The notes beneath the pieces were generated by a model that was given only the letters and a program-made list of their open reading frames with translations, was not told the origin of the DNA and did not search any database. From an uncultured Fibrobacteraceae bacterium (GTDB lineage: Bacteria; Krumholzibacteriota; Krumholzibacteriia; LZORAL124-64-63): 64,000 nucleotides of DNA. The translations under genes and the position numbers were made by a program. Below, piece by piece: positions 3,618 to 37,200 of this stretch (within the stretch, counting starts at the first letter, position 1; every line of letters starts with the position of its first letter). The stretch is taken from the NCBI GenBank assembly GCA_964476155.1, contig CAYYYS010000009.1, positions 18,147 through 82,146 on the forward strand, in the 5' to 3' direction.

Positions 3618-3746
3618 GGCCGGTTCAGGATAGGGCGAGTGACGCCGCCCCGCAAGGACGTCGCGTAAGTGATGATCGAAACGGGGGAGTCGTGTTATGC
3701 TCCCGCACCGAACAGCCGGCCTCCCAGCCCAATCAGGAGTGAATCC

Positions 3747-7966: not shown

Positions 7967-8383
7967 TCATAGACCGATTGATATCGTATCGCCCTCGCTT
8001 CCTTCGGCTGGATGCTCTCCGTCCTCGGCCAGAACCCGGACTCTCACCGCTCGCTCGGCCCGCGGCCAGCTCCCCTCGATCACTTCACCCGATACGGCCA
8101 CTTTATCGCCCTTCATTTGCGCCACGTAACGCGTGAGCCGGTATTCGCCGTCGCGATAGCCGTAGCCGTCGCCCGCGTCCTCGTAAAGCACACCCTCGGC
8201 TTGGCCGTGCGCGTCCAGACAGACGATCAGTTCCAACGCATCCAGAGGTCGCTCGTTCGACCATTGCATGATTGGTCCCACCGGCAGGACGTGCCCCGCG
8301 CCGAGCATCAGCACGGGCAGATCGAGGTCGGCGCCGTCGCTGTCGACCAGCGAAAAGGCTCGCCACACACCGTCCGGCAGCAC
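7967..8383 (-). pseudogene. GH31 alpha-glucosidase family C-terminal fragment (~150 aa). The catalytic domain is absent.
   Basis: GH31 C-terminal signatures GAGHVLPVGPIMQ and LYEDAGDGYGY. The minus-strand frame hits a stop at about 8441. No upstream frame encodes a GH31 catalytic domain. Confidence 0.5.
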
Positions 8384-8439
8384 CGGTTCCGGCGCGCGCC
8401 CGGGGGAGGTGTTGCAGGAAACGAGCAGCCCGTCGCAGC

Positions 8440-10206
8440 CTCATCGACAAGGCGGAGTCCTGCGAGCCCCAGCTCGTGCTGGTCTTCGACGACTGGGAGG
8501 CGCTCGCCGGCAAGAGCTTCGGCGCGGTCTCGGGGGAGATGGAACCCAACGACAACCCCAACCACTACCACAAGACCATCCGCTGGCTCGCCAACCACCC
8601 CTGGGTGGAGATCGTCACGCTCGCCGACATGACCACTCGCGCCCAGGCCGAGCCGGGGAACTGGGTCATTGATCAAGGCACGCGCACCGACCTGGACGTG
8701 ATGACCTACCACTGGCTCCAGCACGCCTGCGAGGACAGCTATCACAATTGGTACTACAACGGGTCGGGTTTTCCGGGCAACGAGCAGAGCTTCTACGATC
8801 TGGTGCCGGTGATCAGCGGCGAGCAGGGCGACTACCACGCGCGCGGCGTCACGCCCCTGGCCGACGGACCGCCCATCCCCAGCGGCCTGTCCTTTGGCGA
8901 CGTGAACTCGCCGGGCGGCCTCATCCACGAAACCTGGGACGCCATCGCCGCCATGACGCCGGGCCATCTGCGCACGATGGCCGAGGCCTCGTTCACTGCC
9001 ATGATCTACGAGACCGCCTGGCACGAGGAAGACAGTACCGACTACCAGGACAGCGATGGTTTCGGCAACTGGCTCTATCCCGACACGACCTGGGACGGGC
9101 TTAGCGGCTGGGCCCTGCGCCTGCACAATCACATTCGCGACGCGGGGGGGCTGGTCCTGGCGTCGGCCTGGGCCGATTCCGTTCGCGCCGGGCAACTGAC
9201 GACCTACGCGGCGCCCCGCGCCTTCTTCCTGGATGCCGATCTCGACGGTGTCGACGAACTCGTCTACCGCAACGGCAAGGTCTGGACTCTCTGGCAGACC
9301 GTCGGCGGTCGCTGCCTGCTGGCCGCGCGTTGGAACCCCGATCGTGACGACACCGTCCTGCTGCTGGGCAACCCGCTGGCCAATCCCAGCGCGCCGGGCG
9401 AGGAGGAGTACGCCGACGAGCGCGCCACCCGCTGCTCCGGCTTCAAGGTGATGAACAGCGGCTACGCGGACGACGATTTCCTGGTGATCCCGACCGGGAC
9501 CGCCATGCAGGCGGTTTCTAACGACGGACTGATTACCGAGACCCATACCCTGACCGCCGGATCGGACACGCTGACGACCGCGGTGTCCGAGACGGTCGGC
9601 GGCGACCTGTACCTGCGCTCAGGCCTCAACCCCAACCCCTGGTCGTTGCTGCTGTACGGCCCCGACCCGCTCGTGCGCGAGTACGACGGCGCCTCGCCCG
9701 AAAGCTCGACATGGTACCGTCTGAGTAATGGCGAGGCATCGATCACCGTGCTCTTCGATACCGCTACCTTCGTCCCCGCGCCCATGCACACCGGCTGGGA
9801 CCGTCGCGATCTGGCACTGACCGAAGAGATCGAGCTGTACGGTGACGGCACCTTCACCTTCCGAACCGTCTTCGGCGCCGGCGATGATGATACCGCCGCG
9901 CCCGATGGGCCGCCTTCATCCGATCGCGTCGCCGCGCGTATGCTGCCGCCGGCGCCGAACCCCTTCAACCCGGCCACGGAGATCCGCTTCGTGCTGGATC
10001 GCTCGGCTGACGTGGCGCTCGATATCTACGCGGCTGATGGGCGGCATGTCCGCACGCTCCAACGCGGTGTATTGCCGGCGGGGGAGTCGGCGTTTGTCTG
10101 GCATGGTCGCGACGATGTCGGGCGTGCGGTTTCGGCGGGTCTGTATCTGGTGAAGTTGAGAGCCGGGGGGACGGTGAGTTCGGCGAAGCTGATCCTTGTG
10201 AAGTAA
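8440..10206 (+). CDS. T9SS C-terminal sorting-domain protein, apparently lacking its N-terminus and signal peptide. Likely a truncated carbohydrate-active cargo protein. The ORF track extends it to 8272 through Arg-rich antisense of the GH31 fragment.
   Basis: Coherent protein from LIDKAESCEPQLVLVFDDWEAL onward. C-terminal NPFNPATEIRFVLDRSADVALDIYAADGRHVRTL...GLYLVKL sorting domain. There is no Met or signal peptide where the protein starts making sense. Confidence 0.5.
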   Translation, partial: LIDKAESCEPQLVLVFDDWEALAGKSFGAVSGEMEPNDNPNHYHKTIRWLANHPWVEIVTLADMTTRAQAEPGNWVIDQGTRTDLDVMTYHWLQHACEDSYHNWYYNGSGFPGNEQSFYDLVPVISGEQGDYHARGVTPLADGPPIPSGLSFGDVNSPGGLIHETWDAIAAMTPGHLRTMAEASFTAMIYETAWHEEDSTDYQDSDGFGNWLYPDTTWDGLSGWALRLHNHIRDAGGLVLASAWADSVRAGQLTTYAAPRAFFLDADLDGVDELVYRNGKVWTLWQTVGGRCLLAARWNPDRDDTVLLLGNPLANPSAPGEEEYADERATRCSGFKVMNSGYADDDFLVIPTGTAMQAVSNDGLITETHTLTAGSDTLTTAVSETVGGDLYLRSGLNPNPWSLLLYGPDPLVREYDGASPESSTWYRLSNGEASITVLFDTATFVPAPMHTGWDRRDLALTEEIELYGDGTFTFRTVFGAGDDDTAAPDGPPSSDRVAARMLPPAPNPFNPATEIRFVLDRSADVALDIYAADGRHVRTLQRGVLPAGESAFVWHGRDDVGRAVSAGLYLVKLRAGGTVSSAKLILVK

Positions 10207-11309: not shown

Positions 11310-13241
11310 TCACTTCACCATGACCATCTTATGGGTGGAACTCTCGTTCCCGGCCTCGACACGGTAGAAGTAAGTGCCGGACGACAACAGGCGCCCGTTC
11401 GCGTCACGGCCGTCCCAGACGGCGGTCTGTTGACCGGCGGTCTGCGTGCCATCGACCAGGACCCGCACCAGGCTGCCGTCCACATCGAAGATCGACAGGC
11501 GAACCTGCTCGTCGCGCGCCAGCTCATACCTGATGACGGTCTCGGGATTGAACGGGTTGGGGTGGTTGCCCCGCACCATCAGCAGTTCCGGCGCCGGGTG
11601 GTCGACCGAAATGGTCGTGCCGTCCAGGTCGGTCAGGAAGCCCGTGGCCGCGTTCTGCACCTTCCAGGTTTCGTCGTTCTGCACGTAGACCGTCGCGCGC
11701 AGCTTCGAGTAGACCCAGGATTCGGCGCTGACCGGACAGTGGGCGTTGAAGCGGTGGATGCCGGGTGTGTTGGGCACCAGGAAACCATCGGTGTCCGGAT
11801 ACATGTAGCGGAACGCCTGGTCATGATAGCGCTCGCCGTTGGTGCCCACTTCGTAGACATCGTCCTCGGTGATCGCCACACGCAGCTTGAGGATCCAGTC
11901 GGCGGGAATAGGCTCCACGATTTCCACTTCGGTGATCAGGGTCTCGGTGACCGGATCCCAGGAGTGCCAGATGTTCAATGGGCTGTGATGGGTCTTGCGC
12001 GTATTGAACAGCGACGCGTATCCGGCTCCGTTGGAACCGGCGTCCACGACCTGGTCGATACGTAGGTGGGGCGCATAGTCGGCGCCGCTACCGTTGGCCA
12101 GGAAATTGTTCTGCAGCGTGTTCGCATCGTAGATGCCGTCCGAGCCGGGCCACCAGACATGCACGCGCACCAGGGCCACTTCGTTGTTCTGGCCGGGGAA
12201 GTAGGCGTCCAGGGCCTGGTTGGCTTGCGGGCAGCCGGAGCAATCCGATTGGGTCAGCAGGATGCCCAGGGGCACGTGCGGTAGGGTATAGGAATCGTCG
12301 AAAGCCGTCGCCTCGTTGTTCGACGTATCCATGTCCGTACCCAGCAACGCCACCGCATGCAGATCGTAGTACTGACCCGCGTTCGTGGTCAGGTTCGGGA
12401 AGCCGACGACCGTTTGGGTCTCGGGAGCCAGGGCGGCCACATTGACTGTTTCGTTGTACACCTGCACGCCTGTTTCCCAGATCGTGACTTCCACATCGAA
12501 GTCTTCGATGCTGCGACCGATGTTCTTCACGGTGACCTGGGGCGCTATGACTTCGCCACTGGCGAACTGTTGCTGGTCTGGCGTTATGGAAAGCGCGCGG
12601 ACATCGTGGAGCCAGGGCTCGTAGACGCGTACGTCGTCCACCCACCAGTGGTCGGCGTAGGAGCCCGTGTAACGCAGGGCGACGTAGACCGTCGGCTCGC
12701 CCGCGTAGGCGGAGAGGTCGATGATCACCGGATCACCGTCGAAGCCGTTGACCGTGTGGGTTGCCGGCGTCATGTCCGAGACGATGGCGAACGTGCCCGT
12801 GTCGGTTTGGCTGGTGGTGCTGACCATCACGTAGTGATGACTGCCCCAGTCCGCCCAATACGACTCCGTCTCGAAGAACTCGAGCCGGATGTCGGTGAGG
12901 CCCGTGAAGTCCAGGGCCGGCATGACCAGCCACTCGTTCTGTGTCGTTCCCTGTGCACCGTATTGGACGAAGGCGCTGAAATTTCCGGTGCGCGCCTCGT
13001 AGTTGCTCTGGACCCACTGGTAGGTGTTGCCCAGGTGGATGCGGTGCCAGCCCGTGGGCGGGAAGGTGCCCTCGAAGCCCTCGGTCAGGAGGTCTATGCG
13101 ACTGGGAGAGAAGGCCGGTCCGTCGGCTCGTCGGTCGGGATTGTAGACCAGGTCGTCGTGAGCGATCGCCACGGTCGTACCCAGCAGCAGAACCGACGTC
13201 AGGATTAAAACCGTACGAACGAGGAGGCTATGGTTGGACAT
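11310..13241 (-). CDS. Secreted T9SS cargo protein: N-terminal choice-of-anchor/MAM-like domain, C-terminal T9SS sorting domain.
   Basis: Signal peptide MSNHSLLVRTVLILTSVLLLGTTVAIA after AAGGAG. GFEGTFPPTGWHR. C-terminal NPFNPETVIRYELARDEQVRLSIFDVDGSLVRVL..GTYFYRV. Confidence 0.75.
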   Translation of the reverse strand: MSNHSLLVRTVLILTSVLLLGTTVAIAHDDLVYNPDRRADGPAFSPSRIDLLTEGFEGTFPPTGWHRIHLGNTYQWVQSNYEARTGNFSAFVQYGAQGTTQNEWLVMPALDFTGLTDIRLEFFETESYWADWGSHHYVMVSTTSQTDTGTFAIVSDMTPATHTVNGFDGDPVIIDLSAYAGEPTVYVALRYTGSYADHWWVDDVRVYEPWLHDVRALSITPDQQQFASGEVIAPQVTVKNIGRSIEDFDVEVTIWETGVQVYNETVNVAALAPETQTVVGFPNLTTNAGQYYDLHAVALLGTDMDTSNNEATAFDDSYTLPHVPLGILLTQSDCSGCPQANQALDAYFPGQNNEVALVRVHVWWPGSDGIYDANTLQNNFLANGSGADYAPHLRIDQVVDAGSNGAGYASLFNTRKTHHSPLNIWHSWDPVTETLITEVEIVEPIPADWILKLRVAITEDDVYEVGTNGERYHDQAFRYMYPDTDGFLVPNTPGIHRFNAHCPVSAESWVYSKLRATVYVQNDETWKVQNAATGFLTDLDGTTISVDHPAPELLMVRGNHPNPFNPETVIRYELARDEQVRLSIFDVDGSLVRVLVDGTQTAGQQTAVWDGRDANGRLLSSGTYFYRVEAGNESSTHKMVMVK

Positions 13242-13481
13242 GGCCGAATCTCCTTGGCATGTGAACAAGTGTTGGAACTCGCGAGGGTAAGACACTGTGG
13301 CCTTGATCTCTAAAATCCCTACAGACGATAGGTATTTTACAGGATTCGCCTGATATTTACAAGCCCCCTTAGATATTTAAACACTTTTTTGTCGGCTAGC
13401 GAGGTCGATGGAGTGCATGAAATCCACAAAATCCACTAAGACCGCAAAAAGGGTGTCTAACAAATCTATTCGACTACCACT

Positions 13482-13591
13482 GAGGACATAGACAATTCGC
13501 CACGACCACGGGGTGTAGCAATCAAGCGAATCGGCCGCCCTAAAGCGGCCGATTCGCGTCCCCGTGGTCGTGGCGAATTGTCTATGTCCTC
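13482..13591 (-). repeat. Nested-hairpin repeat element, copy A, inverted relative to D. Its terminal arm overlaps the stop codon of the upstream minus-strand gene.
   Basis: Perfect 32-bp outer inverted repeat GAGGACATAGACAATTCGCCACGACCACGGGG / CCCCGTGGTCGTGGCGAATTGTCTATGTCCTC. Core GTGTAGCAATCAAGC. Inner hairpin GCGAATCGGCCGC-CCTAAA-GCGGCCGATTCGC. Confidence 0.8.
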
Positions 13592-14204
13592 AATGGTTGT
13601 CGAACCCCGCTTTGACCATGCCCCAACTCCATTGCTCCGCGGCGATAGGGTTGCAGGGCAGTGCCGGGAAGACACCATTCACGCGCCCGAAGGCCTGATC
13701 CTGACCGAATTTCTCGCTGAGCAGATCGTTGGGTTCGTCGATGGGCCAGGGTGCCAGGTCGGACCAGAACGTGAATACGGCCACACCGCTGCGGCCGGGC
13801 CTCACCTGGCTGTCGTCGGTGGGGACGTACTTGATGATCGGCACGTAGATCTGCAGGTCCGGGTCACCGCTCATGTTCAGTTCGGCGTCGAAGTAGATCA
13901 ATCCGTTCACGCCGAAACAGCGAGCCGTACCCGAGGGATTGTCCCAGCGCACGTACTCGAGGATATCGTCGCGCGAGCAGTTGCCCCCTTCGTCCAGCTT
14001 CAGGTTCAAATGGCTCAGCGAGAATTCGGAGTAGTTGTTCCAGGTTACGCGCATCTCGTAGCGCCAAATGCCGCGCGCGCCGGGTTCAGCCTCTGAAGCC
14101 ATGATCGTGCCGTAAAGCTGTGCGTTTTCGGCGACTGCGGCTGTAGTGATCAGCATGGCCGCGATGAGGGCGATCTTTCCGATGTGCCTTTTGCAAGCTA
14201 TCAT
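13590..14204 (-). CDS. Secreted hypothetical protein with signal peptide.
   Basis: N-terminal MIACKRHIGKIALIAAMLITTAAVA. No recognisable domain. 204-aa ORF with normal composition. Confidence 0.55.
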   Translation of the reverse strand: MIACKRHIGKIALIAAMLITTAAVAENAQLYGTIMASEAEPGARGIWRYEMRVTWNNYSEFSLSHLNLKLDEGGNCSRDDILEYVRWDNPSGTARCFGVNGLIYFDAELNMSGDPDLQIYVPIIKYVPTDDSQVRPGRSGVAVFTFWSDLAPWPIDEPNDLLSEKFGQDQAFGRVNGVFPALPCNPIAAEQWSWGMVKAGFDNH

Positions 14205-15111: not shown

Positions 15112-15437
15112 CCCGGATTATTCATGAATGAGGTGGGCTGCGGATTCGTGGTTAAGTCTGTATGATTTCAACTGATTGAGAGCTCACGTACTTCGAAGGC
15201 TCCGTGAAACCGGAGCCGGCGGCTTGATATGCTGTTTGGTCGAAGGTGAGTCGATGGGCCTGAGCACAATGGTAGTGGGGAGAAATCAGTCGCTTAGTCG
15301 AGCGACCGTCCACGCCTGACCGCTGATGTCTTGCCATTTGTCTGTAACAAATATATACTGAATTACTCTGATATCTAGATAGTCGACGATACCGGTTTCC
15401 CGGTGTCGTTTTGAATCTCCCCGGAAGGAACAAGATC

Positions 15438-15950
15438 ATGAAGAAGCTGACCATCCTGGTGACGTTGGCTGCCGTCGTCGCCTTCGCCGCCGTCGCCGTC
15501 GCCGGCGGTCCCGGCTGTTCGGCCAAGTCCCTGAAGGGCGACACCGCCAAGTCCTGCGCCGCGTCGGCCGCCGCCGCCGGTATGGACAAGTGCTGTGTCG
15601 AGGCCGCCGCCGCCGGCAAGGGTTGCTGTGACCAGAGCGCCGAAGCCGTCAAGGCCGCCTACACCAACGTTTGCGCCACCGAGGTCGCCCTGGCCGACAT
15701 GCACAAGTGTTGTGCCGAGGCGGTCCAGGTCGGCAAGGGCTGTTGCGGCAACAGCGCCGATGAGACGAAGGCCGCCTTTGCCGCCAAGGTAGCCAAGGCC
15801 AAGGCCATGTTCGCGGCCAGGGGTGACATGCACAAGTGCTGCGCCGCGGCCGTCGACACGGGCAAGGGTTGCTGTAGTGGGACTGCAGAGGAATTGAAGG
15901 CCGCGTTGGACCAGAAAGCTGCCGCGGCTCTCGAGGCTGCCGGCTCCTGA
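15438..15950 (+). CDS. Secreted Ala/Lys-rich protein with 3-4 repeats of the vicinal-cysteine motif DMHKCC....GKGCC. Possible metal-binding protein.
   Basis: Signal peptide MKKLTILVTLAAVVAFAAVAVAG after AAGGAA. Repeats MDKCCVEAAAAGKGCC, MHKCCAEAVQVGKGCC, MHKCCAAAVDTGKGCC. Followed by a hairpin plus T-run terminator. Confidence 0.6.
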   Translation: MKKLTILVTLAAVVAFAAVAVAGGPGCSAKSLKGDTAKSCAASAAAAGMDKCCVEAAAAGKGCCDQSAEAVKAAYTNVCATEVALADMHKCCAEAVQVGKGCCGNSADETKAAFAAKVAKAKAMFAARGDMHKCCAAAVDTGKGCCSGTAEELKAALDQKAAAALEAAGS

Positions 15951-17876: not shown

Positions 17877-19940
17877 ATGAAGACGATCGCCCCCTGTCTG
17901 TTTATTTGCACCTTGGCCCTGTTCGCCTGCGCGCCGGCCACCGCCGCCGACCGCGAGGACTTCACCGTGGAGGCGTTTCTCCAGGTACCCATCGTCACAT
18001 CGCCGGTCGTTTCACCCGACGGCGCACGCGTGGCCTATCTCCAGCGCGGACGCGACCTGGAGGAGGATGTCTACGAGTACTTCCTGTGGGTTGCGGACCT
18101 GGAGAGCGGCAAGACCCGCCAGATCAGTTTCGACGGCACACGGATCTCCGGCCTGGGTTGGCGTCCCGACGGCGCCCTGAGTTTTCGCGCCAAACGCGAC
18201 GAGGCCTCCCAGGTATGGATCAACCCACTCGATGGTTCGGAGCCGCGACCGGTGACCGATCTGGCCGACGGTGTGCACGCCTATTGGTGGGCGCCCGACG
18301 GGCAGTCGCTCGCAGTGCTGGCGTCGCCGGCCGAGGATGAAGCCGAGGAAGAGGATGAGGACGCCGTCGACGAAGACCGTGCCGACTGGACCGTCTTCGA
18401 TCGGCTCGAGCAACCCGACGAGTTCGACCAGGTGTGGATCGTGGACGTTCTGCCCGACGGCCCCGCCGACACCGAGCCCCGTCAGCTTACCGAAGCGCCT
18501 CTGAATCCCCAGCACGTGGCCTGGTCGCCCGACGGCAAGCAGCTGGCCGTCACCTACAACGCGCGCTTTTCCGGCCTGGTGGACGAAGAACAGCGCGTCG
18601 GCCTGCTCGATATCGACAGCGGCGAGCTGACCCTGATCAGCGACCCCGACCGTCACGCCTCCCTGGCGGCGTTCAGCCCCGACGGCCGCAGCCTGGCCTA
18701 CTACATGGACCGTGCCGACGATCTGCGCGCCTATCTGAATCTCAAGGACCTCTTCATCTGCGACCTGCGCGATGGTGAGACCCGGGACCTCACGCCCGAC
18801 ACGCAGCTCTGTCTCTCGGGATACGGGTCTACGCCCGCCGATCCGCCCTTCTGGTCGGCCGACGGCCGGCGTATCTATCTGCGCGTGTCCGATCGGCGCG
18901 ACATGAACGTCTTCAGCATCGACGCGCGCAACGGCGAGATGACCCAGACGACCCGGCACGCGGGCAACGTGAGCGGTCTACACATGGCCGGCGACGTGCT
19001 GGCCTACGTGGAGAGCGAACTGCATCGTCCCGGCGCCATCTGGGCCGGCAAGCCCGGGCAGACCCGCCAATTGGTCGACACAGACATAGAGGTAGCGGCC
19101 TACGACCTGATCCCGCCCACCCGCCTCGACCTGCCCGGCCACGATGGCCTCACGGTCGAGGGCTTTCTCTTCCTGCCGCCCGGCAAGGACGCGCAGGACG
19201 GTCCGTTCCCCTTCATCATGGAGATGCACGGCGGGCCTTTCTCGCGTTACGGCAATTCCTGGACGACCCGTTATCCCTGGCAGGTCCTGTCGCACAAGGG
19301 CTACGCGGTCTTCATCGCGAATCCGCGCGGCGGCACCGCCTACGGCCAGGACTTCCTGCGCGGCGTCTATCGCAACTACGGCACCGACGACTACCTGGAC
19401 CTGATGGCCGCCTGCGACGCCTTGGTCGAGCGCGGCATCGCCGATCCGGAGCGCATGGGTTTCACGGGCTACAGCTATGGCGGTCTGTCGACGAACAACG
19501 TCATCTCGCGCACCGATCGCTTCGCCGCCGCCGTGTCGATCGCCGGCATCTTCAATTACGTGTCGGCCATGGGGCAGAGCAATCCGCAGCTCTTCATCGA
19601 CAGCTATCGTCAGCCCTGGGCCGGCGACCTGCAACGCATGTGGGAACACAGCCCGGTCTCGCGGGCCGGCAACCTGGTGACACCGACCCTGGTCATGCAC
19701 GGCACCGAAGACCTGCCCGTCGACCCGCGCCAGTCCATCGAACTGTTCAGCTATCTCCAGCTCAACGGCGCGCCTAGTCGGCTGGTCCTGTATCCGGGGG
19801 AGGGCCACGGCATCAACCGGCCGAGTCACATGCTCGACTACGAGACCCGCGAGCTCGCGTGGTTCGATCACTATCTGCTCGGTGACGAGGACGCCGAGGG
19901 CGCCGCGATGCCGGAGCCCGTGGAGGAGACGGTTCGCTGA
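17877..19940 (+). CDS. S9 family serine peptidase (prolyl oligopeptidase / acylaminoacyl-peptidase-like) with N-terminal beta-propeller. Secreted.
   Basis: Signal peptide MKTIAPCLFICTLALFACAPATAA. Propeller repeats SPDG. Nucleophile elbow GYSYGG. C-terminal alpha/beta-hydrolase residues D and H. Confidence 0.85.
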   Translation: MKTIAPCLFICTLALFACAPATAADREDFTVEAFLQVPIVTSPVVSPDGARVAYLQRGRDLEEDVYEYFLWVADLESGKTRQISFDGTRISGLGWRPDGALSFRAKRDEASQVWINPLDGSEPRPVTDLADGVHAYWWAPDGQSLAVLASPAEDEAEEEDEDAVDEDRADWTVFDRLEQPDEFDQVWIVDVLPDGPADTEPRQLTEAPLNPQHVAWSPDGKQLAVTYNARFSGLVDEEQRVGLLDIDSGELTLISDPDRHASLAAFSPDGRSLAYYMDRADDLRAYLNLKDLFICDLRDGETRDLTPDTQLCLSGYGSTPADPPFWSADGRRIYLRVSDRRDMNVFSIDARNGEMTQTTRHAGNVSGLHMAGDVLAYVESELHRPGAIWAGKPGQTRQLVDTDIEVAAYDLIPPTRLDLPGHDGLTVEGFLFLPPGKDAQDGPFPFIMEMHGGPFSRYGNSWTTRYPWQVLSHKGYAVFIANPRGGTAYGQDFLRGVYRNYGTDDYLDLMAACDALVERGIADPERMGFTGYSYGGLSTNNVISRTDRFAAAVSIAGIFNYVSAMGQSNPQLFIDSYRQPWAGDLQRMWEHSPVSRAGNLVTPTLVMHGTEDLPVDPRQSIELFSYLQLNGAPSRLVLYPGEGHGINRPSHMLDYETRELAWFDHYLLGDEDAEGAAMPEPVEETVR

Positions 19941-20012
19941 GTGGCGAGCGGAAACAAAGACTAGTACCGTCTTGTAATGACGAGACACCTGAACTCAAGG
20001 GGGAACACGACA

Positions 20013-20378
20013 ATGAGGATTCTACTCACGACGACCGCGCTGCTGGTCCTGACCATCGCCATAGCCGCTGCCGCGCCCACCGGCGCCTAGCTGGATCTCG
20101 AAAACTGCGCCATGTGCAAAAACCTGACCGACGATCAGGAGCTCTTTGAAGGCATGGTGTGGGACAACCAGCTCTTCGCCAACGGAATGGTGGAGATCAC
20201 CACCGTTTCCACTCATTTCGAAAAGCGTTTCGAGAAACTCATGGGCAAGATGCAGGCGACCGGCAACAGGATGATGGCCGGCGAGCGGCTGCCCATGTGC
20301 GGCATGTGCCAGTCCTACGGCGGACCATCCTTGTGGGTGGTCCGCCTCTTTGCCGGCTCTACCGATAGTAAGCTTTGA
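20013..20378 (+). pseudogene. Small secreted CxxC...CxxC protein interrupted by an in-frame amber codon at the signal-peptide junction (TAG 20088-20090). The downstream part could alternatively be a stand-alone 88-aa CDS from ATG 20112.
   Basis: AAGGGGGAA RBS, then MRILLTTTALLVLTIAIAAAAPTGA*, continuing in frame LDLENCAMCKNLT...LPMCGMCQSYGG. TAG, TGA and TAA are all used as stops elsewhere in the window, so the standard code applies. Confidence 0.4.
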
Positions 20379-20853
20379 TCAGGCCCCAGTTCGCAGGTAC
20401 ATCGGGCTGATCAGCCACGCCCGTGGTGCCATCGAGACAGCCCGAATCGTTTGCGGCGCTGAAGATGGCCGGGCCGCTCTGGCCCACCTCTCCGACTGTG
20501 AAGACCGTGTCCACCTCGAGCCAACCCATCGCTTCGTAGTCAAACCAGCGGAAACGCAAGGTCCATGTCCCGGCCGGCACGTTTTCGACCGTGTTTTCGA
20601 GATCGAAACAGCAGATGCAGTAGCACTGCGGATTCACTTCGGTTTCGGTGATCACCAGGCGGTCGTTCTGCCAGTCCAGGGCATAGTCGAAGGGGTCGTG
20701 GCAGCAATTGTAGAGAGCCGCGTCGTGAAAGACGGTCACATCGGCGCCATCCACTTCCACGTGGATCACGTCGCCGTTCTCGCACGAGTTGTCCTGGGCC
20801 GACGCGGCGGACAGGGTTGCCAGCAGGGTGATCAGGATCAGCATCGTCTTCAT
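20359..20853 (-). CDS. Secreted Cys-motif protein, paralog 1 of an uncharacterised family (NCC ... CxCxCCFDL).
   Basis: Signal peptide MKTMLILITLLATLSAASA. Shares motifs with the adjacent gene: FHDAALYNCCHDP, NPQCYCICCFDLENT, SGCLDGTTG, IKAYY. Confidence 0.6.
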   Translation of the reverse strand: MKTMLILITLLATLSAASAQDNSCENGDVIHVEVDGADVTVFHDAALYNCCHDPFDYALDWQNDRLVITETEVNPQCYCICCFDLENTVENVPAGTWTLRFRWFDYEAMGWLEVDTVFTVGEVGQSGPAIFSAANDSGCLDGTTGVADQPDVPANWGLIKAYYR

Positions 20854-20872
20854 GTCGTCCCCCCGGATCGGT

Positions 20873-21382
20873 TCAGTGGTAGATGGCCTTGATGTCGCTC
20901 CATGTCGTGCTCCGGGGCTCGGGTTCGGTCGGCACGCCCGTCGTATCGAGACAGCCCGAGTTGGCCGATACGGGAGCGCCGTGTACGAAGCCCTGTCCCA
21001 CGTCGGGTACGGTGATCTGGCCGTGCCAGTCGATCCAGACGTGGGTTTCCTCGTCCAGCCAGGAGAAGGTGACCTGCCAGGGGCCCGGTTGGGCGTCGGG
21101 GATCGTCACGCCGAGGTCGAAGCAGCAGTTGCAGTCGCAGGGCGGATCGGCCGCCACGTGCTCGACGATGAACAGGGTCGCGTCGCCGAAGTGGACCTCG
21201 TAGGTGATCGGCTCGGGGCAGCAGTTGTACTGGGCCCCGTCGTGGAAGAGGTGCAGGTCGCTGGTGGCGGGATCGATCTCTACGCGGACCTCGTCGGTGC
21301 CGTTGCACCAGAGGTAGTCGTCGGCGGTGGCTGGCGCGACGAACAGAGTGAGCGTGAACAGCACTGACAGAATTGAACGCAT
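20873..21382 (-). CDS. Secreted Cys-motif protein, paralog 2 of the same uncharacterised family.
   Basis: Signal peptide MRSILSVLFTLTLFVAPATA after GGGAGGGA. Motifs FHDGAQYNCCPEP, DPPCDCNCCFDLGVT, SGCLDTTG, IKAIYH. Collinear with paralog 1. Confidence 0.6.
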   Translation of the reverse strand: MRSILSVLFTLTLFVAPATADDYLWCNGTDEVRVEIDPATSDLHLFHDGAQYNCCPEPITYEVHFGDATLFIVEHVAADPPCDCNCCFDLGVTIPDAQPGPWQVTFSWLDEETHVWIDWHGQITVPDVGQGFVHGAPVSANSGCLDTTGVPTEPEPRSTTWSDIKAIYH

Positions 21383-21774
21383 GGATCCCTCCCAGGCCAT
21401 GGGTTCCGGCGGGGGCGGCATTATGAACAGATGATATCGATATTCACGGAAATCGTCAAGAGGTTGTCTGTAACCCTCACGATGACTTGGGCTTACCTCC
21501 GCCGGAGGTGAGCAGCCACCCCATCAAAACGCCGAAAAGCACGGCGGTGACGGGATTGCCGGTGACGCCTCAGGTGGAGCCGGCGCAGCGCTGCCAGTAG
21601 TGGAAGGCGTAGCCGGCGGCGGCGCCGGCGGTGGGGCCGATCAGTTTCTTGAGGATTTTGTTCGCGTTCATCCCAACAAGATCGGCCAATACTCCGGAAA
21701 AGCAAAGAGCGACGGTTTCAACCGTCCCTCATATGCGCCGGGCTCGGGCTACCAGTACTCCGCCGACGGTCGAC

Positions 21775-23136
21775 TCAACGCAGCGGTGTTTCCGACTCTG
21801 CCAGCGCCCACAGCAATGCCGCCACCACCGCCACGTTTTGCTGCAGGTCGGCGGGGTTCACCTTGTCGATCGTGTCGGACGGACTGTGGTGATAGGTGAA
21901 GTAATCGGGGTTGTCGGTGCGATGGCCGATCAGCGGCACACCGGCGTCGGCCATGAACGAGATGTCCACGCCGCCCCAGCCCGCGGTGACCGACGCGGCG
22001 CCGAAGGATTCCAACGGCTTCGTCAGCTCGGCCAGCTTCGCGATGGACAACGAATCCCCGTTCACGGTGAAGCCGCGCGGCGGGAAGCCGCCCGAGTCGG
22101 ACTCGATGGCAGCCACGTGATTCGCCAGCTCGTCGGCATGGTCGGCGGCGTAGGCCTTGCCGCCGGTCTGGGTCATCTCCTCGTCGGCGAAGAGGACCAC
22201 GCGGATGGTGCGGCGCGGTTGCAGGCCCATCCGTTGTAGCAGCGCGGCGGCTTCCATGGCGATCACACAGCCGGCGCCGTCGTCGTGGGCGCCGCAGCCC
22301 GCGTCCCACGAGTCGAGGTGACCGGAGACCACGACGATCTCCTCGGGATGCTCGCGCCCGGTCAGCTCTCCGATCACGTTGGCCGACAGGACGTCTTCGT
22401 GCCATTTTGCGGCCATTTCCAGCCTCACACGGACAGGCAAGCCGCGATCGAACTGGCGATGTAGCCGGGCCGCGTCCTCCACCGCCAGGGCGGCGGCGGG
22501 GATGCGCTGGATGGTGTCGCCCTCGTCGTAGCTCATGACTCCCGTATGGGGCGTGCAGTCGCGGGCGTGGGTGACCGAACGGATCAGGCAGCCCACCGCG
22601 CCGTGCTTGGCGGCGGCGATGGCGCCGCGTACCCGATATTGCACCGTGCGGCCGTAGCCGTCCCAGGGTGCGTCGAACAGGACGATGCGACCGGCGGCCT
22701 CGTCGGCGCGCGTCTCGAGTTCGTCGAAATCGCTCACGGCCAGCACGTCGGCCTCGACCCCGCCCGGCGGCGTCCCCACGCTGCCGCCCAGTCCGATCAT
22801 CGTGAGTCGTGATTGATGGGGCTCCAGCAGCCAGGCCGACTCGTCGCCCCGCACCCAGTGGGGCACCAGGACCGGTTCGCGGCGCACGTTGACCAGTCCC
22901 GCGTCGGTCATCCGGTCGATCGCCCACTCGACCGCCAACTCGTAGTTGGCCGAGCCGCTCAGGCGCGCGCCGGCCACATCGCACAGCTCCTCCAGCAACG
23001 CGTAGGCGGAACTGTCGGTCATGGCCGTTTCGAGGACGTGTTGCATGACCAGGGGGACGGGGTCGTGATCGGGCTCGATCGAAGAGGCGAACAGGGGCGT
23101 GGCGATCACGAGTGTCAGCACGAGGATACGGATCAT
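21775..23136 (-). CDS. M28 family metallopeptidase (aminopeptidase). Secreted.
   Basis: Signal peptide MIRILVLTLVIATPLFASS. PA-domain-like insert. M28 zinc-ligand region HLDSWDAGCGAHDDGAG. EE pair in ADEEM. Confidence 0.85.
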   Translation of the reverse strand: MIRILVLTLVIATPLFASSIEPDHDPVPLVMQHVLETAMTDSSAYALLEELCDVAGARLSGSANYELAVEWAIDRMTDAGLVNVRREPVLVPHWVRGDESAWLLEPHQSRLTMIGLGGSVGTPPGGVEADVLAVSDFDELETRADEAAGRIVLFDAPWDGYGRTVQYRVRGAIAAAKHGAVGCLIRSVTHARDCTPHTGVMSYDEGDTIQRIPAAALAVEDAARLHRQFDRGLPVRVRLEMAAKWHEDVLSANVIGELTGREHPEEIVVVSGHLDSWDAGCGAHDDGAGCVIAMEAAALLQRMGLQPRRTIRVVLFADEEMTQTGGKAYAADHADELANHVAAIESDSGGFPPRGFTVNGDSLSIAKLAELTKPLESFGAASVTAGWGGVDISFMADAGVPLIGHRTDNPDYFTYHHSPSDTIDKVNPADLQQNVAVVAALLWALAESETPLR

Positions 23137-29954: not shown

Positions 29955-32438
29955 CTATCTGACCAGCAACGCCTTATGGACCTGGGTCTCGCCGCCGGCG
30001 ATCAACCGGAAGACGTAGCTGCCGCTCGGCATCTCGGATCCGGCGGTATCGGTGCCGTCCCAGGTCGCTTCGTAGCGGCCCGCGTCCAGATGCTCGTCCC
30101 GCAACGTCCGTACGTGACGGCCGCGCAGGTCGAAGACCGCGAGCGTCGCCCGGGCCGACGCCTTCAACTCGAAGGCGACGACGGTCAGGGGGTTGAACGG
30201 GTTGGGCACGTTGGGCGTCAGCGTCGCCACGCGACGGTTCGGCCCGGACGTGTCGCTGAACTGTCCCTGCTGCAGGGCCCAGATCTCCACGTCGTCGATG
30301 TTCCAGCCCGCGTATAGCCAACTCCCGTCCGTGGTGCCCTGGGTCCAGCGCAGATAGACGGTCGCCACGCCGTCGGCGATGGTCGAGATGTCGAAGGACT
30401 GCTCGCTCCAGGTGTTGTCCTCGACGACCGCGCCGTTCTCCCACAGGGTCGTGTAGTTGATCCCGTCGGTGCTGATCCGCAGGTAGGCGTGGTCGTAGGA
30501 GGGCTGCTCCACGTTCAGCCAGCGCTGGAACTTGAGGGTGACGGCCTCGAGGTCGCTGCAGTCGATGGCCGTGGTGGTCAGATGACGCTCCGGCATGTTG
30601 TTGGTGTAGTCGCCGGCCAGGTTGTAGCCCATGACGTTCGCGCCGGTGAACCCCGTGGTCGGGTCATTGTTGCCGTACTGGCCGCCGCCGCCCTGGGGCT
30701 GGCCCCAGGCCCAGTCGCCCTCGGTAGTCCAGCCGGGGTCGCTGTCCATGTTGAAGCTGTAGACCACTTGCGGAACACCCACCTGCAGGTTCACCGCGCG
30801 GGTGGCGTCACCGTCGTGACTGGTCGTGTTCACGAAACTCAGCGTGCCGTGATAGCTGCCGATCGCGAGCGCGTCGGCCGCGGCGTTGGGCGAGATCGTC
30901 ACGGTGGCTTCGCCGCCGGGGGCGATGGTGCCGGTGGCGTTGGCGATGTCGGCCCAGGCCTCATCGAAGCTCACCTGATAGTCCAGGGAACTGTCGCCGT
31001 TGTTGCTCAGCACGTAGTCGTAGGTGGCGGGAGTGAAAGGGCCGCCCACGTCGCCGGAGAGGTCGTAGCTGCCGCTGCTCACCCGCATACCGGTCAGGTA
31101 GGGTGCGAACAGGTCCTGGGTCGTGGCGCCGGTACCCAGGGGATCCAGGTAGGTGCTCAGGCCGGACCAGCTGACCGACAGCTTGCCGTACCAGTCGGGG
31201 TCGTTGTTGCCGCAGGCCGCATAGCCGCCGTGGAGCTGCCCCACGACGTGGTGGTTCTGGTTGAACAGGGGCGAACCCGAGGACCCGCCCTCGGTCGTGC
31301 CCAGGTCCCAGTCGGCCACGCGGAAGTGGGTGCTGTTGCCGGGTGATGTGTCACCCAGGTAGGACGTGGTCGTGACGGGGTCGTTCTCGAAGCTGATGCT
31401 CTTCTCGTCGGTGCTGGGGTGGTGGATCGCCACCGCGCTGGTGGGATCGACGCCGCTGTTGTCCCAGCCGGCGTAGGCCACGTTCCACGACGGATCCGGC
31501 TGTGCGTCGAGCAGCACCAGGGAGTAGTCGGACGTGCTGTTCTCGACCTGCAGGACCGATCCGGTGAGGAACTGGCTCAGGCTACCGCCGCTTTGCTGGC
31601 CACAAACGGGACTATTGAAATTCCAGTAGGTCACGAGTGACGGAGCCTGGCTGCTGTGGATGCCGCAGTGGTAGGCGGTCATGAAGAAGGGCGTCTCGTC
31701 GTTGGCGGTGTTGTTGATCATGAAGCCGGTGCAGAACGTGCTGCCGCCGGTGGAGATCACCGCCACGGTCTGGATATCCTCGCGCCAACCATCACCCTCG
31801 GGGCAGACCACGTCGATGTTGCAGGTACCCGACTTCTCGGGAATCAGGTCACCGAACTTGCGATAGCCGGTGTTGACCGACGTGAGCAGCAGGTCGAGAC
31901 GGTCGACGGCCTTGAAGGGCACCGCCACCTCGACGACCAGCGTCTCGGTCTCGACCACGGGCGTCCACAACTCGCCGTGGACCTTGTTGTCGGCGCTGGT
32001 GAAGGCGATGGCTTCCGCACTCCCGTCCGCGGGATAGATCAGCAGACGGCCGCCCGCGGGCATCGCGTAGCGGGTGAAGCCCAGGTTGAGCGACAGGGCG
32101 CCGGAGGATTCGATGCGCAGACGCCAGAGCATGGTGTCCTCGCTGATGCGTTCCCAGGTGCCGTGGGTCTCCGGGGCGATGAAGGTTTCCTGGGGGATGG
32201 CGAAGCGGGGCGGTTGGCCCAGCCCCTCGGCCTGTTGGTCCTCGAGCTTGGCCATCGTGTGATCCACGTAATCGGCGCGGAACTGCGGCACGTCGGCCAG
32301 CGGTAATACGTCGTATCGGGAGGCGGCCGGTTCGGCGGCGCGGTCGACGGCCGTGGCCGGAACCGATGCCAGCATGACGAAAACGAGGGCCATCATGATG
32401 AAACGGAGGCGCGTGTGTGCAATGGCGATGCTGGACAT
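29955..32438 (-). CDS. Secreted S1-family serine endopeptidase (lysyl-endopeptidase-like) with C-terminal T9SS sorting domain.
   Basis: Signal peptide. TAYHCG (catalytic His) and GGSSGSPLF (catalytic Ser). C-terminal NPFNPLTVVAFELKASARATLAVFDLRGRHVRTL...GSYVFRL. Confidence 0.8.
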   Translation of the reverse strand: MSSIAIAHTRLRFIMMALVFVMLASVPATAVDRAAEPAASRYDVLPLADVPQFRADYVDHTMAKLEDQQAEGLGQPPRFAIPQETFIAPETHGTWERISEDTMLWRLRIESSGALSLNLGFTRYAMPAGGRLLIYPADGSAEAIAFTSADNKVHGELWTPVVETETLVVEVAVPFKAVDRLDLLLTSVNTGYRKFGDLIPEKSGTCNIDVVCPEGDGWREDIQTVAVISTGGSTFCTGFMINNTANDETPFFMTAYHCGIHSSQAPSLVTYWNFNSPVCGQQSGGSLSQFLTGSVLQVENSTSDYSLVLLDAQPDPSWNVAYAGWDNSGVDPTSAVAIHHPSTDEKSISFENDPVTTTSYLGDTSPGNSTHFRVADWDLGTTEGGSSGSPLFNQNHHVVGQLHGGYAACGNNDPDWYGKLSVSWSGLSTYLDPLGTGATTQDLFAPYLTGMRVSSGSYDLSGDVGGPFTPATYDYVLSNNGDSSLDYQVSFDEAWADIANATGTIAPGGEATVTISPNAAADALAIGSYHGTLSFVNTTSHDGDATRAVNLQVGVPQVVYSFNMDSDPGWTTEGDWAWGQPQGGGGQYGNNDPTTGFTGANVMGYNLAGDYTNNMPERHLTTTAIDCSDLEAVTLKFQRWLNVEQPSYDHAYLRISTDGINYTTLWENGAVVEDNTWSEQSFDISTIADGVATVYLRWTQGTTDGSWLYAGWNIDDVEIWALQQGQFSDTSGPNRRVATLTPNVPNPFNPLTVVAFELKASARATLAVFDLRGRHVRTLRDEHLDAGRYEATWDGTDTAGSEMPSGSYVFRLIAGGETQVHKALLVR

Positions 32439-34288: not shown

Positions 34289-37200
34289 CTATTTCGTCAA
34301 CAACATCTTGAGAGTGAGCTCATCCCCATCATGCCGTAAACGCGCGAAGTACACGCCCGAAGCAACGACACGACCGTTTTCGTCGGTGCCGTTCCAGGAC
34401 ATCGTATGCCGGCCGGAGTCCATGACGCCCCGGTGGAGCGTGCGCACCTGGTGGCCGCGCACATCGATGACATCCAGGGTCACGTCGCCAGCGCGGGGCA
34501 TGGCGAAGACGATCTCGGTCGCCGGGTTGAACGGGTTCGGGTAGTTGCCATTGAGGGTCAACACCCGCGGCGTGTCCGCGTCGGTGCCCGTCTCCACGAT
34601 CATCGTCACGGTGACGACCTCGGGGGCGCCGCCGCAGTTGTGATCGATCAGGACATAGGCCGTGTAGGTGCCGTCGGCTATGCCGGTGGCGTCGTAGTTG
34701 ATGTCCACGTTCTGGTAGCCGTTCTGGGGCAGGGTGCCCTCCGTCGGGTTCACGGTTAACCAGGTGACCATCTCGAACAGGGCGAACTCGGCGTCGCTGG
34801 TGTCGGTGATGGCGTCATCGAGGCTCGAGACGCGGATCAGGGCCGTCGTGGTGTTCGGGCCGGCCAGGGTGACCGTTTCGGTGCCGTCGTTGGGTGTCGA
34901 GGCCACGAGGGTCTCCCAGGTGCCGCCGCCGTTGCGGCTCAGCTCGATCTTGACCGTCGACAGGTCGCCCGCGTGGTCCCAGGTCACCGCATAGTCGTTG
35001 CCCCACGCCAGGCTCTCGCCGCCGTTGGGGTAGGTCACCGTGACCGACGGACCGGAGGCGGTCATGCTGAAGGTGCCGCTCAGGTCGTGGGGTGTCGATC
35101 CGTAGATGTCGCCCTGGACGAACCAGCCGAAGGTCTGTTCGCCGGTCAGGGAGCCGTCGAAGGTCACGTTGAGTGTACCGGTGGCCGTCTCGCCGCCTCG
35201 CAGGGCGCCCCAGCTACCCCCGTCGGTGCCGTGCCAGTTGGTGGTTACACCGTCGCCGGTGGTACCGGTCCAGAGCAGGGGATCGGTGCCGCCGCTCAGG
35301 GTGGTGGCCGAGTTGACCGTGACGCCCGCGGGGACGGTGATTTCCGCGTCGGTCAGCCACTCGACGTCAGTGCTGGCGTTGTAGACCGAAATGTCCAGGT
35401 CGACGGTCGAGCCGGCCAGGAACTCGTTCTGGCCGCAGGTCACCGAGGAGCCGGCCACGCTCTTGTCGGCCTTCTCGTAGGGATTCTCGGCCTGATAGGT
35501 GATGCTGAAATTGAGCTGGGAGTCGGGCTCGCCCAGGTTGGAAATGCGCAACGCGTCGGTGTCGGTCGCGCCCGACTCCAGGGTGGTGGAACAGGCCGTG
35601 AAGCTCAGGTCGATGGCCGGCGAGGCCATCAGCACGTCTTCTATGTGCGGTTCCATGTTTTGGGCCGTGACGACCATGTGCAGGGGCAGGCCGCCGTCGG
35701 GGGTGACCAGGAAGTCGACGACCACTGTACCCGTTACGCCGACGGTACCGCCGCCGACCAGGGTCGTACCCTGGCTCAGACCGACGTAGCTTCCGGGTGA
35801 CGCGCTGACCGTCAGCGAAGTCGAGCCCATGGCGTCGACGGTCACGGGGTTGACGCTCGGCACACCCATGTAGGTGCTCAGGCTGGGGTCGCCCATCAGG
35901 TTGTAGATGTTCCAGTAGTACTGGGTGCTGCCCGAGCCCGCCTCCTGGACGGCCAGGTTGCCGGAGAAGATCAGGGCGTCGTTGGTCACGTACCACAGGT
36001 CCATGCCTTCGCCGTGGTCGTGGAAGATGCCGTCGTAGGCGCCCACACCCGTGTCGGCGAACGGGATGTTACCGTCGATGATCCCGGAGGGGCAGGAGCC
36101 GGCGCCCCACCAGAAGTCCTCGTCCCACTGCGTATTGTTGCTGGCGCCGATGTAGCCGATGCCACCCTTGTCGACGGCCCGCAGCCAGGTCTCGCCGAAG
36201 CACTCGCCGTAGTCATAGGTCCCTGTCAAACAGCAGTTGCCGATGGCCAGACAGTACTTTTCGGAATTACCCAGGTTGTTGATGTCCGATTGGGTAAAGC
36301 TGGGGTCGGACCAGTTGGTCTGGCCGCCGTGGGCGGTGTAGTTGATGAAGGCCACGCCGTCGCTCACGGTCTGGACAATGGCGGCGTCCACGCTGCCGCT
36401 CGAGGCGGGATAGAGCCAGGTGTTGCTGGTGATGCCGTGGGCCGCGTTGAAGTAGTTGTCGGTGCCGTAGTTGATCTGACCGTTACCGTGCGTCGACGCA
36501 TAACCATAATCCACGCCGGCGATCAGGGTCACTTCGCCCAGGTAGCTGGGATCGGACATGGTGAACTGGTCGTACATCAGGGTCTTGTCGATCATCGCCT
36601 GCAGTTGCGAGGCGTTGGTGGCGGAGAAGCGGCCGTAGTAGATGTCCGGCACGTAGTCGCCGTCCATGGTGCAGTAGGGGCGGTCGGTGGCGTCGCCGCC
36701 CACGGAGTAGGTGGGCATCTGGGCCACATCGCCCACGAAGAGCACGAAGCTGGGCGCCGGTTGTGAGGCCGTGGCGTTATCGTACAGGTCCTGGATGTAG
36801 CTCTGGATCGACGTGGTGGTCGAGCCGACCTCGGGAGTGCCCGTCACCGCGAGGATCGTGTTGAAGCCGCGCTGGGTCTTCCAGTTGACGAAGTCGGCGA
36901 GCTGGTACTCGAACTCCGGCGGCGTGACGATGACCATGGTCACCAGATCGCCGACGTGGTCGGGGTAGCTGTCGTGCAGGCCCCGCGAGCCGTCGAGCTG
37001 GGAGTAGAGATGATCGAAGAAGGGACTCGCGGTCCGGGCGTACAGGTCGCCGCCGGCGCTATTGTCGCCGCCTTCGTAGATGATCTCGAGCTCGGCGCTT
37101 TCGACGATCTCCAGTTCACCGGTGCCCGGTCGGTAGGTTACCGGTGCGAACTCGAGGCGTCCGAAGTCCATGGCGCGCAGGCGGCCCTGGGGAACGACGG

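Follow-up and report, generated by a model that had tools for sequence, protein, structure and literature searches.

Tandem secreted cysteine-rich proteins of an uncultured bacterium end in a portable C-terminal tail, a candidate sorting signal

A 64,000-nucleotide stretch of DNA from an uncultured Fibrobacteraceae bacterium (GenBank assembly GCA_964476155.1, contig CAYYYS010000009.1, positions 18,147 to 82,146 of the forward strand; hereafter the window) encodes two adjacent secreted proteins, A and B, that combine a cysteine-rich domain lacking a curated family name with a C-terminal tail of ten residues. The same tail ends many unrelated exported proteins, and within the A/B family it is exchanged for the C-terminal domain (CTD) of the type IX secretion system (T9SS). 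We read A and B as Sec-exported, cysteine-stapled immunoglobulin-like (Ig-like) modules that are directed to their final location by a new short C-terminal signal, an explanation to which we give slightly better than even weight.

As an earlier note on this DNA had proposed, genes A and B are tandem paralogs, both on the minus strand with 19 bp between them; their products are 38 % identical over the full length (BLASTP, E 3e-32), a similarity far beyond chance, and the peptide blocks quoted at that time (HVEVDGADVTVFHDAALYNCCHDP, NPQCYCICCFDLENTV, SGCLDGTTGV and IKAYYR, with their counterparts in B) all read back exactly from the translations. The two proteins also carry the signal peptides claimed for them, which end in the AXA-type cleavage sites ASA/QD in A and ATA/DD in B. 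Neither contains a lipobox at the relevant sites, ASA/Q and ATA/D, so they do not qualify as bacterial lipoproteins.

The LPXTG, PEP-CTERM and T9SS CTD signals, each of them portable, have led to a dedicated sorting machine and to sequence-based prediction of surface proteomes. If our explanation is true, a ten-residue tail that has no membrane helix and is exchangeable with the CTD would do likewise for phyla represented by metagenomes only, and even in a small sample this tail is present on about 50 unrelated families. The cysteine-rich module, for its part, runs to over 2,000 clusters at 50 % identity that are nameless in Pfam, NCBIfam and the PDB, and is marked by five universal cysteines together with a His/Asn/Glu trio that is probably buried.

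A portable C-terminal tail

The tail follows the pattern [ST]-W-G-x-[IV]-K-A-x-[YF]-R and ends directly at a stop codon; its last residue is usually R or H, while K, E and D are rarer. The window and 22 related genome loci, amounting to 387 kb, were scanned in six frames with the wider pattern W-[GSATN]-x-[IVLMA]-[KR]-x-x-[YFW]; 40 of the 52 matches lay at most three residues from a stop codon, as compared to one of ten for the reversed pattern. At least seven tailed proteins of the window and these loci are unrelated to the A/B family, and all of them carry signal peptides. The window itself encodes an unrelated 204-residue signal-peptide protein that ends in ...WSWGMVKAGFDNH directly before its stop codon and has no Pfam or NCBIfam match.

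A wider sample was obtained by exact DNA search of metagenome contigs for the back-translated tail including the stop codon. Among the matches listed, 132 of 134 were followed by a true stop, on contigs with a GC content of 0.30–0.75, and when the 97 full-length open reading frames (ORFs) among them were trimmed of their last 25 residues, they sorted into 48 unrelated clusters; a signal-peptide-like N-terminus was seen in 79 of these 97. The same matches also revealed conservation at positions outside the search pattern, namely T/S at −10 (94 %), P at −15 (54 %), T/V at −16 (65 %) and a frequent Cys at −18 to −20. The tail is preceded by a lead-in P-[TV]-P-x-E, and measures about 17 residues with and 10 residues without it. 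In the sampled contigs, a biased sample from which the contig-selecting match was excluded, tails occur about once per 20–40 kb. Taxonomic spread was judged from the contig GC content and, for the 22 genome loci, from the titles of their records. A 20-column HMM of the tail gives 29–38 bits on true tails. A 40-column profile of the tail run against an index of 5.8 billion proteins yielded eight candidates and two matches, a word index being unsuited to a ten-residue motif.

Among 196 members of the A/B family, the single-domain proteins of about 160–190 residues end in the tail, 104 of them by the strict pattern (104–111 overall) and the rest mostly as near-matches or fragments. In the alignment of single-domain members, W156 and K160 of A are conserved in 81 % and 82 % of sequences, with 15 % gaps. 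A further 15–17 family proteins of 240–260 residues, including P0051, P0094, P0099 and P0160, carry a FlgD_ig/Por_Secre_tail domain behind an S-x-C-L linker, exactly in the position of the tail, and a rough neighbour-joining tree of the family implies at least six switches between tail and CTD. The link to the T9SS that the earlier note had suggested looking for is real: besides these CTD-bearing homologs, the window encodes four large secreted proteins with T9SS-type CTDs, which means that a single genome contains both endings. Among the four, a C25 gingipain-like peptidase that also has a propeptide shows a weak similarity, far below the cutoff, to the T9SS sortase PorU. Among the tail-bearing metagenome contigs, 14 of 120 also encode FlgD_ig/Por_Secre_tail-type proteins. 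Counting CTDs by regular expression recovered one of the four Pfam-detected CTDs of the window and was dropped as unreliable. A and B themselves do not match any CTD model (PF18962 and TIGR04183 included) at E≤10, and only about 25 residues follow their domain; judged by the defining domain of that class, they are not T9SS type A cargo.

The cysteine-rich domain

Pfam-A 2025 and NCBIfam 20.0 returned no relevant match to A or B at E≤10, and in 133 relatives only the partner domains were matched, while no family covered the domain itself. Searching PDB sequences with a single sequence or with a 65-sequence profile gave nothing. The AlphaFold2 model of A, built on a 65-sequence alignment (predicted local distance difference test, pLDDT, 86.5; predicted TM score, pTM, 0.74), shows an eight-stranded beta-sandwich at residues 29–136 that is followed by a low-confidence tail. 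Comparison of this model with the PDB by Foldseek, a check put forward in the earlier note, found no significant match; the best ones were PKD domains of Vibrio proteases and CBM31 (E 0.26–0.5, TM 0.23–0.34 on the query). Sub-threshold Pfam similarities of the relatives were all to Ig-like families (Y_Y_Y, CarboxypepD_reg, DUF3244, Filamin and Gmad2). By the model and these similarities the fold is Ig-like, and the family is unnamed, as had been supposed. PKD, CBM31 and CarboxypepD_reg/Y_Y_Y-like modules are likewise all-beta sandwiches of about 80–110 residues that occur singly or in tandem in secreted enzymes and surface proteins, and the domain shares the strand signature L-x-P-G-x-Y-x-V with small Ig-like and carbohydrate-binding modules, but its YNCC/PCxCxC cluster and its invariant His, Asn and Glu are foreign to the PKD, CBM31 and CarboxypepD_reg/Y_Y_Y-like families.

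Far from forming a small family, the domain is widespread and modular. One query sequence found 15 family matches and a profile in a word-indexed search 68; an exhaustive profile search reached 2,239 cluster representatives (50 % identity) at E≤1e-3, of which 788 pass E≤1e-10 and 119 pass E≤1e-30. Many of these are proteins of 300–3,000 residues, among them very large surface proteins, containing two to five tandem copies of the core (profile positions ~25–105), the named multi-repeat members coming from Phycisphaerales and 'FCB group' genomes. Partner domains include Dockerin_1 (9 members), FlgD_ig/Por_Secre_tail (12/3), beta-helix/NosD, Kazal and DUF7901, and some multi-repeat relatives carry lipoboxes. 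Judged from these architectures, the domain is an extracellular building block. The multi-repeat dockerin relatives (P0074, P0111, P0105, P0149, P0131, P0142 and others) contain the motif '..G.YCV.R..YPWG..' after each repeat and also close with it, a recurring element distinct from the tail. In P0073 and P0081, two five-repeat lipoproteins, the motif 'T-T-Q-x-E-C' occurs five times in a row near the N-terminus, matching in number the five-cysteine repeats downstream, which suggests an N-terminal strap that would be linked to each domain through cysteines.

Eight cysteines align between A and B (C24, C50, C51, C77, C79, C81, C82 and C139 in the numbering of A). C50, C79, C81 and C139 are invariant in the 65-sequence alignment, where the other four are conserved to at least 90 %. 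In 292 domain instances, only C50, C51, C77, C79 and C81 are universal, together with H43, N49, E70, G95 and Y/W97. The eight invariant cysteines of the earlier note therefore hold for the close single-domain subfamily, whereas family-wide the number is five, which is also the cysteine content of the minimal repeat. H43 and E70, placed just before the YNCC and the CYCICC block of A, respectively, follow the periodicity of the hydrophobic residues in their strands and are therefore likely to face the core, next to C50, C79, C81 and C139.

Across the same 292 instances, C24 and C82 are absent together in dozens of repeats and C51 and C77 in ten, in both cases never singly, which defines two coupled pairs, C24/C82 and C51/C77. 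In the three relatives inspected for it (P0072, P0073 and P0081), the number of extra 'S/T-x-C' motifs, comparable to S137-G-C139 of A, equals the number of repeats; therefore C50, C79, C81 and C139 always travel together. Of the disulfide-knotted or metal-binding fold that had been proposed, the pairing is supported by co-loss for two cysteine pairs, while the remaining quartet could form either two disulfides or a four-thiol metal site. As every context of the domain is extracellular, we favour disulfides and suppose that most of the cysteines form them. The modal cysteine count of single-domain members is 8; counts are even in 95 and odd in 36 single-domain members and even in 29 and odd in 17 repeat proteins, figures that are noisy owing to crude trimming of signal peptides.

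A metal-binding function, in which C50, C79, C81 and C139, perhaps with H43 or E70, would bind Zn, Cu or Fe for metal handling in the envelope, appears unlikely to us, even though several observations speak for it. C50, C79 and C81 are never lost in the 292 instances, H43, N49 and E70 are 91–100 % conserved, distant repeats included, and the C-x-C-x-C arrangement would set three thiols on one strand face, which should suit a metal better than disulfides. Moreover, in the closest relatives the convergent neighbour of the family genes encodes a secreted CxxC protein whose His-rich tail closes with HDHGHGHDHHH. In the genome studied here, however, this neighbour has decayed beside intact A and B genes, and the other clade lacks it. 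Signal peptides, dockerins and T9SS domains place all contexts of the domain outside the cell, where cysteines are usually oxidised; the coupled pairs and the even modal count likewise argue for disulfides, and no hidden Markov model (HMM) of a metal family in Pfam or NCBIfam matched A or B. In our main reading, the sandwich most likely serves as a stable module for structure or binding rather than as an enzyme, and we would expect the domain to bind something.

Comparison of the tail with known sorting signals

In the mechanism that we propose, genes B and A would form a two-gene unit derived from an old tandem duplication, whose products would be exported by the Sec pathway and have their signal peptides cut at the AXA site. 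This would leave a mature protein of about 145 residues, made up of the compact eight-stranded Ig-like beta-sandwich held by its cysteine cluster, a flexible, Pro/Thr/Glu-rich linker of 15–20 residues, and a tail of the A/B type, [ST]-W-[GS]-x-[IV]-K-A-x-[YF]-[RH]-COOH. A protein that needs a free C-terminus would read this tail, which would decide on placement at the cell surface or in the envelope, the two paralogs being diversified cargoes. From its portability, its position and its exchange with the T9SS CTD, the tail is inferred to act as a C-terminal sorting or retention signal. A broader claim would be that the tail, in the form [ST]-W-G-x-[IV]-K-A-[LM]-[YF]-R-COOH and together with the lead-in P-[TV]-P-x-E, is a widespread C-terminal sorting signal not described before, present in about one gene per 20–40 kb in Candidatus Eisenbacteria and other uncultivated lineages; we consider this possible, if somewhat below an even chance. 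The tail would then either stand in for the T9SS CTD in minimal form, mimicking the essential last strand of that domain, or act through a novel sorting machine, with the YNCC/CxCxC module among its commonest cargoes.

A close comparison is the T9SS CTD itself (PF18962 Por_Secre_tail/PF13860 FlgD_ig; TIGR04183), which like the tail occupies the extreme C-terminus of unrelated signal-peptide proteins in FCB-type bacteria. Yet the CTD is a folded, seven-stranded Ig-like domain of 70–100 residues as opposed to the ten residues of the tail. Its last strand, which contains a conserved Lys, is essential for translocation, and the sorting signal of HBP35 has been mapped to the last 22 residues (PMC11285876). 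The CTD tolerates a C-terminal extension (PMC11285876), whereas the motif of the tail almost always lies exactly one residue from the stop. The endings, ..K-A-L-Y-R in the tail and ..K-x-L-L-V-K/R in the CTDs seen here, share the order hydrophobic-hydrophobic-basic, a modest resemblance that may serve as a lead. Identity of the tail with the first strand of the CTD, suggested by four homologs reading '..SWTIKALPNPAR..' or '..FGAIRVLTNPAR..' as though a CTD had been joined to a tail, was rejected, the other CTDs of the window having no W-G-x-I-K before PNP.

Signals of the exosortase, archaeosortase and rhombosortase systems (PEP-CTERM, GlyGly-CTERM and MYXO-CTERM) are, like the tail, short, portable, lineage-restricted and attached to unrelated secreted proteins, and the small P-x-E-like motif and the Cys that often precede the tail can be likened to signals of the exosortase type. 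The latter, however, contain a transmembrane helix and a basic cluster, while the tail has about nine residues after its W and no hydrophobic stretch. A PEP-CTERM-type signal was rejected accordingly: no hydrophobic span follows W-G-x-I-K-A-x-Y-R and no NCBIfam sorting model matched any of 12 tailed proteins. Two other candidates were rejected as well, an outer-membrane beta-signal, since the tail has no aromatic residue at −1 and the model is a small sandwich and not a barrel, and a lipoprotein feature, since the signal peptides of A and B contain no lipobox. By analogy, A and B would work most like T9SS or sortase cargo, whose N-terminus bears a signal peptide and whose C-terminus bears a portable address.

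Instead of being read by a sorting protein, the tail could be an anchor, either as an amphipathic helix on the membrane surface or by covalent attachment, for example through its invariant Lys, to peptidoglycan or another envelope polymer. The membrane anchors of MinD and FtsA are C-terminal amphipathic helices of 10–15 residues, and E. coli Lpp ends in K-Y-R-K and is joined to peptidoglycan via its C-terminal Lys. On a helix, the W, I/V and Y/F of the tail would share one face (i, i+3, i+7) flanked by K and R, and AlphaFold2 draws residues 156–162 of A as a helix. We nevertheless think an anchor improbable: nine or ten residues are short for stable membrane binding, the near-invariant W, G and K at a fixed distance to the C-terminus indicate recognition by a protein and not lipid affinity, and the exchange with a T9SS sorting domain fits targeting at least equally well.

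Several points weigh against a dedicated C-terminal signal on an inert, disulfide-stapled module. No machinery could be linked to the tail: ORF clustering of 143 loci revealed no untailed family recurring beside tailed genes, and no neighbour is conserved next to them. AlphaFold2 confidence for the tail of A is about 60, and the helix at residues 156–162 is short and of low confidence. A search of the open-access literature, covering the motif and its peptide strings as well as Eisenbacteria in connection with sorting or T9SS, did not find a description of the tail, and 12 tailed proteins gave no C-terminal or sorting-model match in NCBIfam; the literature scope being open-access only, novelty is not proven. 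As for the domain, cysteine parity lends only modest support to an all-disulfide model, and H43, N49 and E70, which by strand periodicity would face the core next to C50, C79 and C81, could form a metal or cross-link site, in which case the notion of an inert module would be wrong.

The view that the C-terminal block is the last conserved structural element of the cysteine-rich family, with IKAxY as a family motif as the earlier note had listed it, is refuted and has next to no probability left: although the tail is conserved in most single-domain members, it ends at least 48 unrelated protein clusters, occurs in none of 57 multi-repeat members, gives way to the T9SS CTD in others, and does not adjoin the domain, a variable linker modelled with low confidence lying in between.

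The A/B locus and its surroundings

Coordinates of the genes, their parts and other features of the window are listed in Table 1. A longer ORF is possible for gene B, with an upstream ATG at 21421. We place the start at 21382 because a GGGAGGG Shine-Dalgarno sequence precedes this position, a promoter-like site, suggestive only, lies upstream, and the product is called as 169 residues in independent assemblies of the same organism. Directly behind the stop codon of A, the DNA encodes a stem-loop (fold of 20300–20362: −31.1 kcal/mol, z −4.5, none of 200 shuffles equally stable) that is probably the end of the B-A transcript; with the hairpin in this position, B and A look like one short transcription unit. 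An Rfam scan of 19900–22000 found no riboswitch and no other RNA family.

Table 1. Features of the window (positions in the window; −, minus strand; +, plus strand; aa, amino acids).
Feature	Position	Strand	Description	Basis
Gene B	20873-21382	−	169-aa precursor, B-type paralog	ORF list and translation
Signal peptide of B	21323-21382	−
Cys-rich domain of B	~20951-21307	−	followed by linker and tail
Tail of B, TWSDIKAIYH	20876-20905	−	stop directly after	W-S variant as in closest B-type orthologs
Gene A	20359-20853	−	164-aa precursor, A-type paralog	ORF translation, BLASTP, AlphaFold2
Signal peptide of A	20797-20853	−
Cys-rich beta-sandwich domain of A	20437-20784	−	followed by linker and tail
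Core Cys cluster of A	20608-20712	−	YNCC (48-51), CYCICC (77-82)	conservation, 292 domain instances
Tail of A, NWGLIKAYYR	20362-20391	−	stop directly after	same tail ends unrelated proteins
Promoter-like site	21431-21459	−	TTGACG-17-TATCAT, upstream of gene B	consensus scan, 1 site vs 0.4 expected
Strong stem-loop	20319-20346	−	no U tract; directly 3' of gene A stop
Unrelated tailed protein	13590-14204	−	204 aa, signal peptide; tail at 13602-13628
Secreted FlgD_ig/Por_Secre_tail protein	34289-37675	−
Secreted FlgD_ig/Por_Secre_tail protein	8272-10206	+
Secreted FlgD_ig/Por_Secre_tail protein	11310-13295	−
Secreted FlgD_ig/Por_Secre_tail protein	29955-32438	−
Decayed CxMC/His-rich gene	20013-20378	+	remnant
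Vicinal-Cys repeat protein	15411-15950	+	179 aa, signal peptide
Tricorn-like protein	3669-6992	+	1,107 aa, secreted
Interrupted small ORF	21477-21671	−	64 codons; TGA at 21570-21572

Protein A occurs in identical form on 22 contigs from several metagenomes, and the named relatives of A and B come from metagenome-assembled genomes of Candidatus Eisenbacteria. In the four closest species (L001–L004), a B-type gene comes first and is followed by one A-type gene or by two. The A-type orthologs of these species are 46–59 % identical to A, as compared to 37–38 % between A and B; therefore, the duplication is older than the split of the four species and both copies have been kept. Its age and the conserved B-then-A order fit the diversification suggested in the earlier note. 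An M28 peptidase, an S9 peptidase and the convergent small gene flank the pair in this clade, while the surroundings of the family gene differ entirely in the other clade; an operon partner is therefore not conserved. Six further records (L014–L019) are nearly identical in synteny around the family gene and yet bear conflicting labels, namely Gemmatimonas sp., Candidatus Latescibacterota, Fibrobacter sp. or simply 'bacterium', showing that the submitters' taxonomy is inconsistent for this lineage.

The convergent small gene, whose secreted product contains CxMC motifs and ends in a His-rich tail, is intact beside the family in L002–L004 (167–194 residues, with the HDHGHGHDHHH ending). In the window it is reduced to a remnant in which a TAG replaces a Trp codon of the relatives and the 3' half is missing; the same 88-residue call is made in independent assemblies. 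Another cysteine-rich product of the window is the 179-residue signal-peptide protein listed in Table 1, with three 'M(D/H)KCC..A...GKGCC' repeats that place paired vicinal cysteines in Ala-rich, helix-like repeats; it matches no Pfam or NCBIfam family. In the 1,107-residue secreted protein, TolB-like beta-propellers are found together with a region of the S41 C-terminal-processing peptidase type, a tricorn-like arrangement; tricorn-like and S41 C-terminal-processing enzymes read free C-termini.

Upstream of gene B, an in-frame TGA splits the small membrane-protein ORF MNANKILKKLIGPTAGAAAGYAFHYWQRCAGST*GVTGNPVTAVLFGVLMGWLLTSGGGKPKSS. If this codon is read as Cys, Pfam DUF6132 matches across the stop (E 0.0027, below the cutoff), and the Rfam scan found no selenocysteine insertion sequence (SECIS) at this ORF. 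About 11 nt after the TGA follows a stable hairpin (−27.5 kcal/mol, z −1.9), and the codon is a candidate for selenocysteine, or else the ORF is a pseudogene.

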